A stretch of DNA of 64,000 bases from the NCBI GenBank assembly GCA_003222395.1, contig QHWB01000069.1, forward strand, positions 9,660-73,659, in the 5' to 3' direction. Numbering within the stretch: the stretch's first letter is position 1; each line of letters starts with the position of its first letter. The notes beneath the pieces were generated by a model, which ran no database searches, had not been told where the DNA came from, and was given only the letters and a program-made list of their open reading frames with translations. The stretch is from Acidobacteriota bacterium. GTDB lineage: Bacteria; Acidobacteriota; Vicinamibacteria; Vicinamibacterales; CAVVIG01. Position numbers and translations under genes: made by a program. Shown here in pieces: positions 42,295 through 47,621 of this stretch.

Positions 42295-42729
42295 TCAGTG
42301 GCGCAGGTGTTCCGAACTGGGACCGCCCGGGTGCACCGTGTTCCGCTCAGCGTGCCAGGTCAGATTTCCGACTGTACTCACTAATGTTCCCTGCAGCGAC
42401 CCGTCTGGCTGAAGCGTTCCAATCGCGAAGAGGTCAATGTCATTTGAGTCGTCGCTGTGCCGGATTCCGCCGCCGTCCGACGAGCCCGCAAAATGAATCA
42501 GCCCCTTCCTGAATTCTCCTTGCAACGGAAACGAACCGTGGAATCCTTCGAGGGTCCCTGTCACTCTCGTGCCGTCCTGTCGCAGCGACAGCGGCATGAC
42601 GTAGCCCTCGGCGGAGAAAGTCCATTCTCCGCTGAGCGTTCGCACCTCGGGTGTCGCCTTCTGAGCAGACGCTCCCGCGTTGTGCACTGTCGCGATGATC
42701 GCAAGTACCAGCGCGAGTGCTAATCGCAT
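42295..42729 (-). CDS. Secreted hypothetical beta-rich protein
   Basis: RBS AGGAGG, signal peptide, LSGEWTF...LSLRQDGTRVTGTL. Confidence 0.65.
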   Translation of the reverse strand: MRLALALVLAIIATVHNAGASAQKATPEVRTLSGEWTFSAEGYVMPLSLRQDGTRVTGTLEGFHGSFPLQGEFRKGLIHFAGSSDGGGIRHSDDSNDIDLFAIGTLQPDGSLQGTLVSTVGNLTWHAERNTVHPGGPSSEHLRH

Positions 42730-42790
42730 CGGGTCGCCTCCTGTTCGTCACGAAGACCAGGTGTCGCGGTCGGGTTCCGCGTGTGCTCGG

Positions 42791-43327
42791 TCAGCGCTTT
42801 CGCTGCTGAATCTGCGCGACGAAGAACCGCTTCAGCGTTTCGTTCGTGAGCCCGAGTTCCGTCGCTTCTTCGAGCGCCTTGTCGGTGTCCCAGCCATCGA
42901 CGATCGTGCGTTTCATGAGCCACATCCCGGCGGCTCTTCCACCGCCAGCTCAATGGATGAACGCCGGCTGGACGCCCGGCGCGGTGATCGTCTTCAGAAA
43001 CGTGTCGACGACCGCGGGGTCCGGCGCCGCCGCACTGAATGGGATGTGGTAATAGGGAATATCGGCCACCTTCGCAGCGGCGATGTTAGCGTCGATGTCG
43101 GCCCCCGGCTCGGTCGCGAGGCGGAGGTTGATGATCGACGCGTAACCCATCTTCTTGATTTCCTGGATCGCGGTGGGCGTAATGGCGCCTGCGCACGCCA
43201 CGGTCGATTCGACCTTGGCGAAGTTCCGGATACCAGGGACCTCCTGCCTCACAACCTGCGCACTCGCCGCGGTGGCCATCAGGCCAGCGAGCGTGAACAG
43301 CGCAAGCGTCGGAATCTCCGGTTGCAT
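42791..43327 (-). CDS. Secreted DUF442/Blh-like PTP-fold phosphatase/sulfurtransferase with in-frame TGA at catalytic Cys: candidate selenoprotein
   Basis: RBS AGGAGG plus ATG 43327, signal peptide, GYASIINLR, YYHIPF, FIH-TGA-AGGGRAA (42952-42950). The frame continues 52 sense codons (...GWDTDKALEEATELGL...) to TGA at 42793-42791. Confidence 0.7.
42917..42936 (-). promoter_or_regulatory. Candidate bacterial SECIS hairpin
   Basis: GAGCCGC-CGGGAT-GTGGCTC: 7-bp stem with one G-U pair; loop begins 20 nt after UGA with G at loop position 2. Confidence 0.5.
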
Positions 43328-44894: not shown

Positions 44895-47621
44895 TTGCGA
44901 GGGGATACGCGCACCGACCTTTCGGACGGCGTTCTCGATACGTTTCCTGCTGTTGCGTGGCTCAAGAACGATCCGCGTGCCTTGGACTGGAACGGGCCCG
45001 CGACCCGGCTCTTCACGCGCTTTCGCGAGGACAATTTGCAGCGGCCGATCATCGAGCTCTTCGAGCGCGTGGCCCGGCGAGAGCGAAGCCGCATCGCAAT
45101 CAGGGAAGCGAACACGGCTCTCACCTTTGGTGAACTGTGGGACGCGGTCTCGGGACTTGCCGAAATCCTGGGGGCCAACACGGGGCCCGGCGACCTGATC
45201 GCCATCCTGCTGCCGGCATGCCCGATGTTTCCGATCGCCATGCTCGCATGCCTCGCCGCAGGACACCCGTTTGTCGTCCTCGATACACACCATCCGCCGG
45301 ACTGGCTCGGCGACGTGCTGCGGCAGGCACGCCCGACGCTGGTCATCACGCTCGACGATGGTCTGCGGAGTGTCGAAGCTCGGATGCCCACGGTGCGTGT
45401 CATCCGTTTGACTGGCTTGCCCAGGTCCGCGCCCAAGGGTTGGCGACCGGCCCCTATGGGTTTGGATGAACCCGCTTGTGTCCTATTCACGTCCGGCAGC
45501 ACAGGGCAGCCAAAGAGCGTCGTGAATAGTCAGCGAAACCTGCTGCAGCGCGTGGCGCAATCGATCAATGCCGCGCACATCAACGCCGCGGACCGACATC
45601 TGACTCTTGCTCCGGCCTGCACGATCGTCGGCGTCCGGGACGTCATGACCGCGCTGCTGGCGGGAGCGAGCATTCACCTTCTCGATCCGCGAGGTGTCGG
45701 GGCACGCGAGATCTTGCACGTGATCCGCGCGGAGGCCATCACCGTCCTCTTCGCGTTTCCGGCTCTTCTACGATCCATCGTCGCGGCTCGGGAAGGACAC
45801 GCGGACGCTGCTCTGAGGCTGGTGCGCGTCGGCGGAGACACGACCGTGTGGAACGACGTCGAGACGCTGCGCGCGTGGCTTGCACCAGAGGCCGCAGTCC
45901 AACTCGTCTACGCGGCGACGGAAGCGCCGATGATGCAGTGGTTCGTGAACGACACGTGCAGACGTGAGGATGCTCGCATTCCCATTGGCTATCCGCTGCC
46001 TGGCAACCATCTCGCGTTAGTCGACGAAGACGGTCGTGCTACGCCGCCAGGCGAAGTCGGTGAGCTCATCGTCGGAGGACAATACGTTTCGCTGGGAAGT
46101 TGGGTCGAGGGACGGCTCGCGGACAAGAGCGTTGAAACGGACGCCACGCATGGAGAGCGGATTTTTCGCACCGGAGACCTCGCGCGCCAGCGGCCCGACG
46201 GGTTGCTGGAGCGAGTCGGCCGCAAGGATAGGCAGGTCAAGATACGCGGGTTTCGCGTCGATCTCGATGGAGTCGAGGCCATGCTTCGCGCGCACACATC
46301 CGTTCGAGATGTGGCCGTGACGGGACGGCCGAGCAGCGCCGATGGCACGTTGACGCTCGTCGCATATGTAAGTGCGCGCGATGGAGCGCCTCCTGAACTG
46401 ATTGGCGAATTGAAGGAGTTGATGCGCTCCGCACCGCTGGCGATGCGCCCCGCACGCTTCTATCTTGAGCCTTCGATTCCGCGGCTGCCGAGCTCGAAAC
46501 TGGATATTCGCGCGCTCGCCGCCCTCGACGAGGCCCGTGTTCAACGGGAACGTGCTGAATCGATCGACGAAGCCACGCTTCCGGGGATCGGCGGCGATCA
46601 CGTGGCGCAGACGGTGGCTGGCGTCTGGCAAGATGTGTTGCTCACACCGGTTCGAGCAACTGACGATGATTTTTTCGACAGCGGCGGCGACTCGCTCAAG
46701 GCCATCACATTCGTGCTCGAGCTCGAGCGGGTACTCGGCTTCGAGATCCCGCTCATGCTGATCAGCGAGGCGCCGAGGTTCTCTCAGCTTTGCCAGGCGC
46801 TGAGAGAGCGGCGCGCACCAGGCTCGACTCCTCTGGTCACTCTCAAGGCGGGCAGCGGCCTGCCGGCGGTTTTCTTCATCCATGGCGTTGGCGGAAATCT
46901 CGTCGAAATCCTGCCTACGGCGCGGCGCTTGACTTACGGTGGCGCCGTGATTGGCATTCGGGCGCGCGGTGTAGTACGCGGAGAAAAACCGCACACGAGC
47001 ATCGAGGCGATGGCCGTGGACTATCTGAGAGAGATCAAGCAGCGCCAGCCGAACGGTCCGTATCACCTGTGCGGCTATTCCTCAGGTGGACTTGCAGCGT
47101 TCGAGATTGCCCGACGCTTGTCCGAGTCGGGCGATGAAGTCGGTTTGGTCGGGCTGTTTGATACGACGATGAGTCCGGTGCGATGGCCATTACAGACCTG
47201 GCTCGCCATCAGCGCTCGGCGAATGGCGCTCTTCGCCGCCGCTCTGCGCGCGGTGTCAATTCGGAGGTGGCCCGCCACACTGCGCAAGTCAGTCGAGCAA
47301 CTTCGCGCGTGGCGTCTCTCTGTCAGCGACTCGCCCTTAATTGGAGTCAAGGTCGCGGCAAGCGCGCTCATCGCCTCAGCAAGGTATCAACCAGGGTTTT
47401 ATCGCGGTGAGCTCACGCTGTTCTCGCCCGCAGGGCGCGAGCCTGGCCTTCCCTCTCTCGAGTCTATCTGGCGCAAGCATGCTCGAGCGGTGGTCGTCGT
47501 CGACACGCCGGGAACCCACTTAACAATGCTCTCGCCGAGTCATGCGGAGACAACGGCTGCATGTGTGACGCAGTGTCTGCCCTCTGGTCCTCTCGCGCTC
47601 ACAAGTGGCAATGGCGCGTGA
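44895..47621 (+). CDS. Monomodular NRPS-like enzyme (A-T-TE)
   Basis: A3 LFTSGSTGQPKSV, A5 YAATE, A7 FRTGDL, A8 GRKDRQVKIRG, A10 SSKLD; T domain FFDSGGDSL; TE domain GYSSGG and PGTHLTML. Confidence 0.88.
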   Translation: MRGDTRTDLSDGVLDTFPAVAWLKNDPRALDWNGPATRLFTRFREDNLQRPIIELFERVARRERSRIAIREANTALTFGELWDAVSGLAEILGANTGPGDLIAILLPACPMFPIAMLACLAAGHPFVVLDTHHPPDWLGDVLRQARPTLVITLDDGLRSVEARMPTVRVIRLTGLPRSAPKGWRPAPMGLDEPACVLFTSGSTGQPKSVVNSQRNLLQRVAQSINAAHINAADRHLTLAPACTIVGVRDVMTALLAGASIHLLDPRGVGAREILHVIRAEAITVLFAFPALLRSIVAAREGHADAALRLVRVGGDTTVWNDVETLRAWLAPEAAVQLVYAATEAPMMQWFVNDTCRREDARIPIGYPLPGNHLALVDEDGRATPPGEVGELIVGGQYVSLGSWVEGRLADKSVETDATHGERIFRTGDLARQRPDGLLERVGRKDRQVKIRGFRVDLDGVEAMLRAHTSVRDVAVTGRPSSADGTLTLVAYVSARDGAPPELIGELKELMRSAPLAMRPARFYLEPSIPRLPSSKLDIRALAALDEARVQRERAESIDEATLPGIGGDHVAQTVAGVWQDVLLTPVRATDDDFFDSGGDSLKAITFVLELERVLGFEIPLMLISEAPRFSQLCQALRERRAPGSTPLVTLKAGSGLPAVFFIHGVGGNLVEILPTARRLTYGGAVIGIRARGVVRGEKPHTSIEAMAVDYLREIKQRQPNGPYHLCGYSSGGLAAFEIARRLSESGDEVGLVGLFDTTMSPVRWPLQTWLAISARRMALFAAALRAVSIRRWPATLRKSVEQLRAWRLSVSDSPLIGVKVAASALIASARYQPGFYRGELTLFSPAGREPGLPSLESIWRKHARAVVVVDTPGTHLTMLSPSHAETTAACVTQCLPSGPLALTSGNGA

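Follow-up and report, generated by a model that had tools for sequence, protein, structure and literature searches.

A candidate exported DUF442 selenoprotein, with UGA at the catalytic cysteine position, in a soil acidobacterium

The gene and its predicted read-through product

The DNA analyzed here is a stretch of 64,000 nucleotides (nt) from an Acidobacteriota genome of the order Vicinamibacterales (contig QHWB01000069.1, positions 9,660 to 73,659), referred to below as the window. On its minus strand, at 42791-43327, lies a gene of 178 codons that contains an in-frame TGA as codon 126 (42950-42952), directly after an invariant CAU His codon, and ends with a second TGA (42791-42793). This gene very probably encodes an exported DUF442-domain enzyme in which selenocysteine (Sec) stands in for the catalytic Cys, and its bearer is an acidobacterium of soil. 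The start codon, an ATG at 43327, is preceded 7 nt upstream by a Shine-Dalgarno-like AGGAGG (43340-43335). Translation with TGA read as U yields a product of 178 residues containing PAFIH-U-AGGGRAAGMWLMKR; the TGA lies in the context FIH-TGA-AGGGRAA and is followed by 52 further open codons before the stop at 42793-42791. These signals and the open frame are present as described in the original prediction, which was made from the DNA sequence of the window. That prediction also held that gene callers split the gene; instead, they shorten its product to about 125 amino acids (aa). Under translation table 11, the region contains only an open reading frame (ORF) ending at 42950 and a 44-aa ORF at 42791-42925 (ATG at 42925).

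The N-terminus begins, as was proposed, in the manner of a signal peptide. Residues 1-23 (MQPEIPTLALFTLAGLMATAASA, followed by Q; 43259-43327) form a putative signal peptide of the Sec (secretory) type, with a hydrophobic core and a terminal A-S-A motif. The N-termini of the orthologues resemble that of the window copy, many of them having a basic start. These features suggest that the DUF442 protein is exported to the periplasm.

Residues 39-139 (42911-43213) match the DUF442/BLH_phosphatase family of Pfam (PF04273) with a score of 35 bits (cut-off 26.1). The NCBIfam scan returned only the Blh model NF040641 (43 bits versus a cut-off of 625), the "sulfur transferase" model TIGR01244 and a weak chorismate mutase match. 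An AlphaFold2 (AF2) model, built from a 66-sequence alignment, reached a pLDDT of 84.7 and a pTM of 0.80, with values below 50 at residues 1-11 and 13-21. Its best Foldseek matches are the DUF442 structures 3gxh and 2f46 and two small phosphatases of the protein tyrosine phosphatase (PTP) fold, 2i6i and 5z5a, with TM scores of 0.57-0.66 normalised to the query. The Pfam and structural matches agree with the predicted DUF442/PTP fold, in which the TGA occupies the position of the nucleophilic Cys.

The active-site loop, U126-A-G-G-G-R131 (42935-42952), has four residues between U and R and is therefore a UX4R loop; the UX5R of the original prediction was a miscount, at odds with the HCxxxxR that it also gave. 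When HMMER aligns the query to the true CX5R enzyme TpbA, its Arg comes one column early, and the C-X5-R signature of classical protein tyrosine and dual-specificity phosphatases is absent. Positions C126 and R131 are invariant in the 66-sequence alignment. So is Cys45 (codon at 43193-43195, in the motif TVACAGA), found in 66 of 66 aligned family members and situated in a block of lower model confidence (residues 41-50, mean pLDDT 68). Judged by its conservation, Cys45 is a candidate second redox residue.

Conservation of the TGA and of the frame behind it

In nine other genomes, a six-frame search of 61 related genomes detected orthologues at 72-93% identity that each have one in-frame TGA, and all TGA copies found in this search share the motif FIH*AGG[GS]RAAGMWLMKR, where the asterisk denotes TGA. 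Homologues at 59% identity or less in these 61 genomes, including a paralogue from the same genome as the window (G000:C25; 57%), are without an internal TGA. A further 30 loci, all from metagenome-assembled genomes (MAGs) and mostly labelled Vicinamibacterales or Acidobacteriota, came from a scan of one genome for each GTDB species. The active-site column was covered in 60 loci, with TGA in 36 and TGC or TGT in 24; removal of 8 duplicates of already known loci reduced the former to 28 distinct loci. All 28, at 64-94% identity, carry the TGA in the same column. Throughout the 60 loci, identity of at least 64% goes with TGA and identity of 61% or less with Cys. The same boundary appears within the GTDB family, where 19 of 118 genomes gave a match at E ≤ 1e-62: a single internal TGA is present in each of the 18 matches at 64% identity or more, which come from 10 of 43 genera, and is missing from the remaining match (56%).

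Coding constraint acts on both sides of the TGA. The 28 distinct loci comprise 24 that are complete in one frame, two that are intact to the contig end and two (L079 and L080) that are frameshifted; across the TGA itself, frame and register are kept in every locus, with no indel. The median pairwise ratio of nonsynonymous to synonymous substitution rates (dN/dS) is 0.17 for codons -100 to -1 and 0.15 for codons +13 to +52, at mean dS values of 0.95 and 1.04, respectively; these pairs include both frameshifted rows, which are able only to raise upstream dN. Independent homologues thus have TGA aligned to Cys (28 of 28 TGA, against 24 of 24 Cys in the more distant homologues) and a kept downstream frame, as anticipated. 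The original caveat of a TGC-to-TGA nonsense mutation in a pseudogene is contradicted by the same data.

Twenty-six loci extend to the true stop, and they use TGA in 21 cases, TAA in three and TAG in two. Because the genuine stop is usually TGA, this codon still terminates translation in these organisms; only the internal one is special, and the code has not been reassigned. The His codon preceding the UGA (42953-42955) is always CAT in the 28 Sec forms and, among the Cys forms, CAC in 17 and CAT in seven; the genomes are GC-rich. This preference may reflect a context requirement for Sec decoding or a context that disfavours termination.

Several individual loci deserve mention. L079 and L080 lie on long contigs of two uncultured-Acidobacteriota MAGs and have their frameshift at about residues 81-100, with the TGA, the hairpin described below and the downstream frame intact; they may represent assembly error or pseudogenisation, which are indistinguishable in these two copies. 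In genome G031, the Sec-form orthologue (G031:C47:158836-159370) and the gene for SelA (G031:C5:27603-28717) are each found in two adjacent pieces, and those of the orthologue overlap, hence are in different frames. This could point to an indel-prone assembly or to real decay of the Sec trait. Two Sec-form copies with unexpected labels, L052 (on a 1.9-kb contig labelled Gemmatimonadaceae) and L068 (labelled Acidimicrobiia), group with Vicinamibacterales sequences, and L068 is identical across the gene region to L012 of G012, a genome placed in the window's own family. Both labels are likely binning or labelling inconsistencies.

The Cys homologues are single proteins of 175-180 aa. Full-length Cys relatives with the same loop were also found in the protein database (P0002-P0005 at 75-79% identity and P0008 at 65%), and a Cys paralogue is retained in nine of the ten Sec-form genomes of the 61-genome search. 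In a quick tree with midpoint root and SH-aLRT branch support, computed with the active-site column masked and without L079 and L080 (which formed an artefactual long-branch pair when included), 26 Sec rows and four close Cys rows constitute one group (SH-aLRT 94) inside the Cys diversity. The Cys label requires three changes on this tree, for which the simplest reading, with the root given by midpoint only, is one Cys-to-Sec gain followed by two reversions. The ENA protein P0010 has W at the Sec position and a 19-residue tail beyond the usual stop; it looks like a gene call made under a table in which TGA encodes Trp.

The locus is also represented in environmental data. Most of this stretch is present in fourteen soil DNA runs, and contigs spanning the TGA were recovered from four soil RNA libraries of four studies (42784-42987, 42894-43326, 42851-43070 and 42747-43083; 88-98% likeness). 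None of the 40 listed differences, among 46 in all, falls on 42950-42952. The RNA-library evidence consists of contigs only, into which DNA may have been carried over, and is silent on strand, level and transcript ends.

A conserved hairpin and the selenocysteine machinery

The element proposed as the selenocysteine insertion sequence (SECIS) is a hairpin, here called B, located at 42936-42917 on the minus strand, where the original prediction had placed it. It is composed of a 7-bp stem (GAGCCGC/GUGGCUC) and the loop CGGGAU (42924-42929); the hairpin starts 13 nt and its loop 20 nt past the UGA. In the 28-sequence alignment 175 of 175 cells are paired, with six pairs invariant and the seventh being A-U in 18 rows and G-U in seven, and the RNAalifold consensus on this alignment is hairpin B. 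Its mean pair probability is 0.01 or less in 22 of the 24 Cys paralogues, so the hairpin is conserved in the Sec forms and absent from the paralogues. According to a recent review (PMC13188914), bacterial SECIS (bSECIS) elements have a loop of 3-9 nt, a stem of 4-16 bp, a G in the first two loop positions, a spacing of 16-37 nt and a minimum free energy (MFE) of at most -7.5 kcal/mol. With a 6-nt loop, 7 bp, CG-G, 20 nt and -12.0 kcal/mol, hairpin B fits this description.

A competing hairpin, A (GGCGGU/GGAAGA/GCCGCC; 42929-42946, minus strand), is mutually exclusive with B and is the MFE fold of the window copy as free RNA. In the alignment, 90.7% of its cells are paired and two of its pairs are broken, in six and eight of 25 rows, and its loop lies 9 nt from the UGA, outside the bSECIS spacing rule. 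Hairpin A was set aside as the SECIS on account of the two broken pairs, the 9-nt spacing and a recurrent C21-to-A change that breaks A while extending B; a selD-like fold with UGAGC/GCUCA as lower stem was set aside together with it.

The stretch after the UGA is under constraint at the RNA level. All 28 Sec forms use GGC at codon +2, GCC at +6 and CTC at +11, and their Arg codon at +5 (AGA in 20, AGG in six, CGA and CGG in one each) always ends in a purine, able to pair with U; the Cys group has CGC in 16, CGT in four and CGG in four at +5, and mixed Ala and Leu/Met codons at the other stem positions. Degenerate conserved codon columns are invariant in 3 of 9 cases within +1 to +12 versus 4 of 64 elsewhere (Fisher p = 0.036). 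The four elsewhere encode Ile, Phe, Phe and His, and no four- or six-fold column is invariant outside +1 to +12. Mean dS is 0.48 in codons +1 to +12, compared with 0.95-1.04 in the flanks; among nine orthologues only, the suppression at synonymous sites is mild (0.22 versus 0.29-0.34).

Six loci share a synonymous triple change (GGA to GGC, GCC to GCA and GGG to GGU). Two of the three changes lengthen B by one pair each, A21-U26 at its upper end and C12-G36 beneath a bulged A34; the remaining change turns the loop into a GGUA tetraloop. The change of GCC to GCA breaks one pair of hairpin A. Well-supported branches of the tree, which includes five such rows, force at least two origins of the triple change. 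These extension pairs of hairpin B are facultative. Judging from ribosome footprints in general, most of hairpin A would be covered when the UGA is in the A site of the ribosome, which would leave B free to form. Of the two folds, hairpin B is the probable working SECIS.

All components needed for Sec insertion are encoded in the genome of the window, which is 99% complete, and the selA, selB, selC and selD genes called for by the original prediction are all present. SelA was found with 456.7 bits and SelB with 313.8 bits (cut-off 242.25). SelD and FdhA each contain an in-frame TGA of their own (VACAG*ASK and ARV*HGP, respectively). A single tRNA-Sec was identified (62.5 bits in Rfam; ARAGORN anticodon tca), the only one of 53 tRNAs in the whole-genome ARAGORN run to have a UCA anticodon. 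It has the standard shape of a tRNA-Sec: the acceptor stem counts eight positions, with an A.G mismatch at the eighth, the T stem measures 5 bp, the variable arm is long and G73 is present. Among the 61 genomes, a strong SelA match was obtained in nine of the ten Sec-form genomes, the tenth being 59% complete, and the Sec form occurs in none of the ten genomes of at least 90% completeness without such a match. As SelA is common in this order, its co-occurrence with the Sec form is a weak discriminator. Outside the window, ARAGORN reported a 94-nt tRNA-like gene (G000:C8:28692-28785) whose anticodon has four nt (caac), whose variable arm is long and whose acceptor stem contains mismatches. One report (PMC5389517) describes odd "allo-tRNAs" from Acidobacteria as well as selC* tRNA-Cys suppressors with U73.

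Alternative readings, likely function and known relatives

The conservation of the TGA, the machinery and the hairpin support the original proposal of a 178-aa Sec-containing protein, and we infer that selenium is inserted at residue 126. Could the locus instead be a decaying DUF442 gene in which TGC mutated to TGA? Frameshifts in two of the 28 orthologous loci and the split G031 copy would suit this; set against them are an identical TGA in 28 distinct loci from 10 genera, a downstream dN/dS at the upstream level with dS of about 1, the 26 loci free of other lesions and the retained hairpin, and pseudogenisation is hardly credible. A true stop at the UGA, leaving a 125-residue N-terminal product and perhaps a separate small peptide from the ATG at 42925, agrees with gene-caller annotation, with the 44-aa ORF of table 11 and with the 51 of the best 120 database clusters that are 124-126 aa fragments. 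It would cost the protein residue 126, the conserved Arg, the active-site loop and three helices of the fold; frame and register are kept across the TGA in all loci and the Cys homologues are single proteins, which makes a true stop very improbable. Somewhat less remote, yet still improbable, is the reading of UGA as ordinary Cys, Ser or Trp by a suppressor or a tRNA-Sec-like tRNA, so that the product would not be a selenoprotein. Such tRNAs have been described, some of them in Acidobacteria (PMC5389517), close relatives function with Cys at this position, and the genome has the odd tRNA-like gene mentioned above. That gene, however, has caac and not UCA as anticodon; the sole UCA tRNA has the 8/5 layout and G73, not the U73 of selC*; the genome encodes SelA, SelB and SelD, and its selD and fdhA genes use UGA at known Sec sites. 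General suppression is also made less likely by the stop of the same gene, TGA in 21 of 26 loci.

Several observations weigh against a UGA-encoded selenoenzyme of this family. None of the pairs of hairpin B varies on both sides, so the support for this hairpin consists of invariance and one-sided compatible changes rather than double compensatory change. The 76 nt after the TGA fold no better than shuffled sequences (z = -0.33; 69 of 200 shuffles at least as good). As free RNA, the window's own copy prefers hairpin A (mean pair probability 0.87, versus 0.09 for B), and just 14 of 24 distinct sequences give B a value above 0.9. The tests on synonymous sites gave modest results (p about 0.03) and were made on mutually related sequences. 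An Rfam scan gave no SECIS match, its sole match being an unrelated viral pseudoknot (16.5 bits, E = 1.1). Two of the 28 loci are frameshifted upstream of the TGA. The TIGR01244 score (42.5 bits) is under the NCBI cut-off of 85.85, and by NCBI's rule the protein is related to this subfamily without being a member of it. Finally, no neighbour of the Sec gene is conserved: apart from the gene itself, the best neighbour cluster recurs in 4 of 28 Sec loci, and the gene order therefore offers no operon hint to function.

The original prediction left the activity as that of a sulfur/selenium transferase or a phosphatase; the transferase part is now favoured and the phosphatase part less so, because of published assays of other DUF442 domains and the length of the loop. 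The DUF442 domain of Xylella Blh has thiosulfate:cyanide sulfurtransferase activity (PMC5823870), and that of Cupriavidus SQR has C94 as essential carrier of the persulfide and R99 in its pocket (PMC6441731). By analogy with these domains, we lean slightly towards a periplasmic carrier of sulfane sulfur or selenium. A selenoprotein acting as a phosphatase or as an oxyanion reductase (on arsenate, selenite or phosphoesters), possibly through a selenenylsulfide with Cys45, is unlikely. It would draw on the PTP-like fold, on the true phosphatases among the nearest solved structures and on Cys45, which is invariant, in its lower-confidence segment of the model. Against it, the CX4R loop is shorter by one residue than that of TpbA (CX5R), the assayed DUF442 domains are sulfurtransferases, and 7 of 24 Cys-paralogue loci lie in a neighbour cluster whose annotated example has a SoxA/TsdA cytochrome domain.

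The 178-residue pre-protein of the carrier reading would consist of the signal peptide followed by a single DUF442 domain (PTP fold, Blh-like). During translation, codon 126 would be decoded as Sec by SelB and tRNA-Sec, recruited by hairpin B, and Sec would replace the nucleophilic Cys in the anion-binding loop, H-C-X4-R. Once mature, at about 155 residues, the enzyme would most likely be a periplasmic chalcogen carrier. Its selenolate may attack a sulfane-sulfur donor (thiosulfate, polysulfide or persulfide) or a selenium analogue, and the atom would be held as a Se-S (or Se-Se) adduct in the Arg-lined pocket before being handed to an acceptor. Tentatively, and with slightly more doubt than conviction, we propose a selenoenzyme that would be the first with the PTP/DUF442 fold: an enzyme of the periplasm that transfers chalcogens or reduces oxyanions, with a Se-S or Se-Se intermediate on Sec126 possibly resolved by Cys45, in which case the extracytoplasmic sulfur (or selenium/arsenic) chemistry of Vicinamibacterales, which are widespread in soil, would be partly selenium-dependent.

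The surroundings of the Cys paralogues give hints of periplasmic thiosulfate chemistry. Seven of the 24 Cys-paralogue loci (L031 and its equivalents L014, L015, L018, L020, L021 and L025) share neighbour clusters. In L031, a Tat-signal protein without a Pfam match (L031:2-1036, minus strand) is encoded upstream on the same strand as the Cys paralogue, and divergently upstream of it lies an ORF (L031:281-1459, plus strand) with a SoxA/TsdA cytochrome c domain (30.4 bits, cut-off 27). The neighbours of the selenoprotein gene in the window recur only in L052. The ORF directly downstream of the gene (42295-42729, minus strand; 144 aa) starts in the manner of a signal peptide and matches no Pfam family; its conservation, at 98% identity, is limited to L052, the closest relative. 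On the plus strand, 44895-47621 encodes a single-module protein resembling nonribosomal peptide synthetases (AMP-binding, PP-binding and thioesterase domains), followed by genes for a GT4 glycosyltransferase and a DAO-family oxidoreductase. The nearby ORFs of the window that were scanned have ordinary full-length Pfam matches.

In public databases the product is annotated as a fragment of 116-126 aa, one 90% cluster of which has 192 members, and NCBI names one such fragment "sulfur transferase domain-containing protein". A selenoprotein of this kind would have stayed hidden because gene callers truncate it. Table 1 of a May 2026 review, listing 119 prokaryotic selenoprotein families and subfamilies (PMC13188914), has no entry for PF04273, TIGR01244, PTP or Blh, and the main texts of deep-Sep (2025) and of a 2022 review mention neither phosphatases nor DUF442. 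Going by title and the start of the abstract, the literature on selenocysteine in Vicinamibacter concerns other topics, and that on selenoproteins of Acidobacteria or soil metagenomes describes this family in none of the matches listed. A full-text literature search found no selenoprotein with an in-frame UGA in a DUF442/PF04273/TIGR01244 protein or a bacterial tyrosine phosphatase; supplementary lists of lower-confidence candidates may exist. The NCBIfam selenoprotein models do not match the window protein. The recoding of UGA and the logic of exchanging Cys for Sec are textbook knowledge. It is the family and the fold that are new to the list of prokaryotic selenoproteins, the recoding mechanism being already known.

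One family and one fold would be added to the prokaryotic selenoproteome, and a systematic annotation error comes to light, with many 125-aa fragments of the gene in public databases. The Sec forms, the nested Cys revertants and the Cys paralogue of the same genomes provide a natural series on the benefit of selenium in a sulfur-carrier P-loop. Since the gene is carried by soil Acidobacteria that belong to a little-cultured order, the finding suggests that sulfur handling in soil has a selenium requirement.

Compared with the bSECIS consensus of PMC13188914, hairpin B is alike in loop size, stem length, the G at loop position 2 followed by another G, spacing and energy, and its variant form carries a GGUA tetraloop; it differs in having the overlapping competitor A and no compensatory covariation, and its binding by SelB is predicted. 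The DUF442/TIGR01244 sulfurtransferase domains (the N-terminal domain of Xylella Blh, Cupriavidus pinatubonensis SQR, 2f46 and 3gxh) belong to the same Pfam family, PF04273, and share the fold. The SQR domain also resembles the window protein in its short C-X4-R loop, where C94 is the essential nucleophile and R99 the Arg of the pocket. The window protein differs from these domains in its UGA-encoded nucleophile and the extra invariant Cys45, and it stands alone and is predicted to be exported, unlike the domains fused to a dioxygenase or to SQR. With the phosphatases Pseudomonas aeruginosa TpbA (4r0s) and Sulfolobus SsoPTP (2i6i) it shares the overall fold and the nucleophile at the base of the P-loop; their loop is CX5R, in contrast to UX4R here, and identity in the structural alignments is 14-22%. 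The nearest functional analogy is offered by the rhodanese-like selenoproteins (forms 1-5 in Table 1 of PMC13188914), in which Sec likewise replaces the catalytic Cys of sulfurtransferase-type enzymes. These belong to another fold and family (PF00581 and NF models, as opposed to PF04273), and none of their models matches the window protein.

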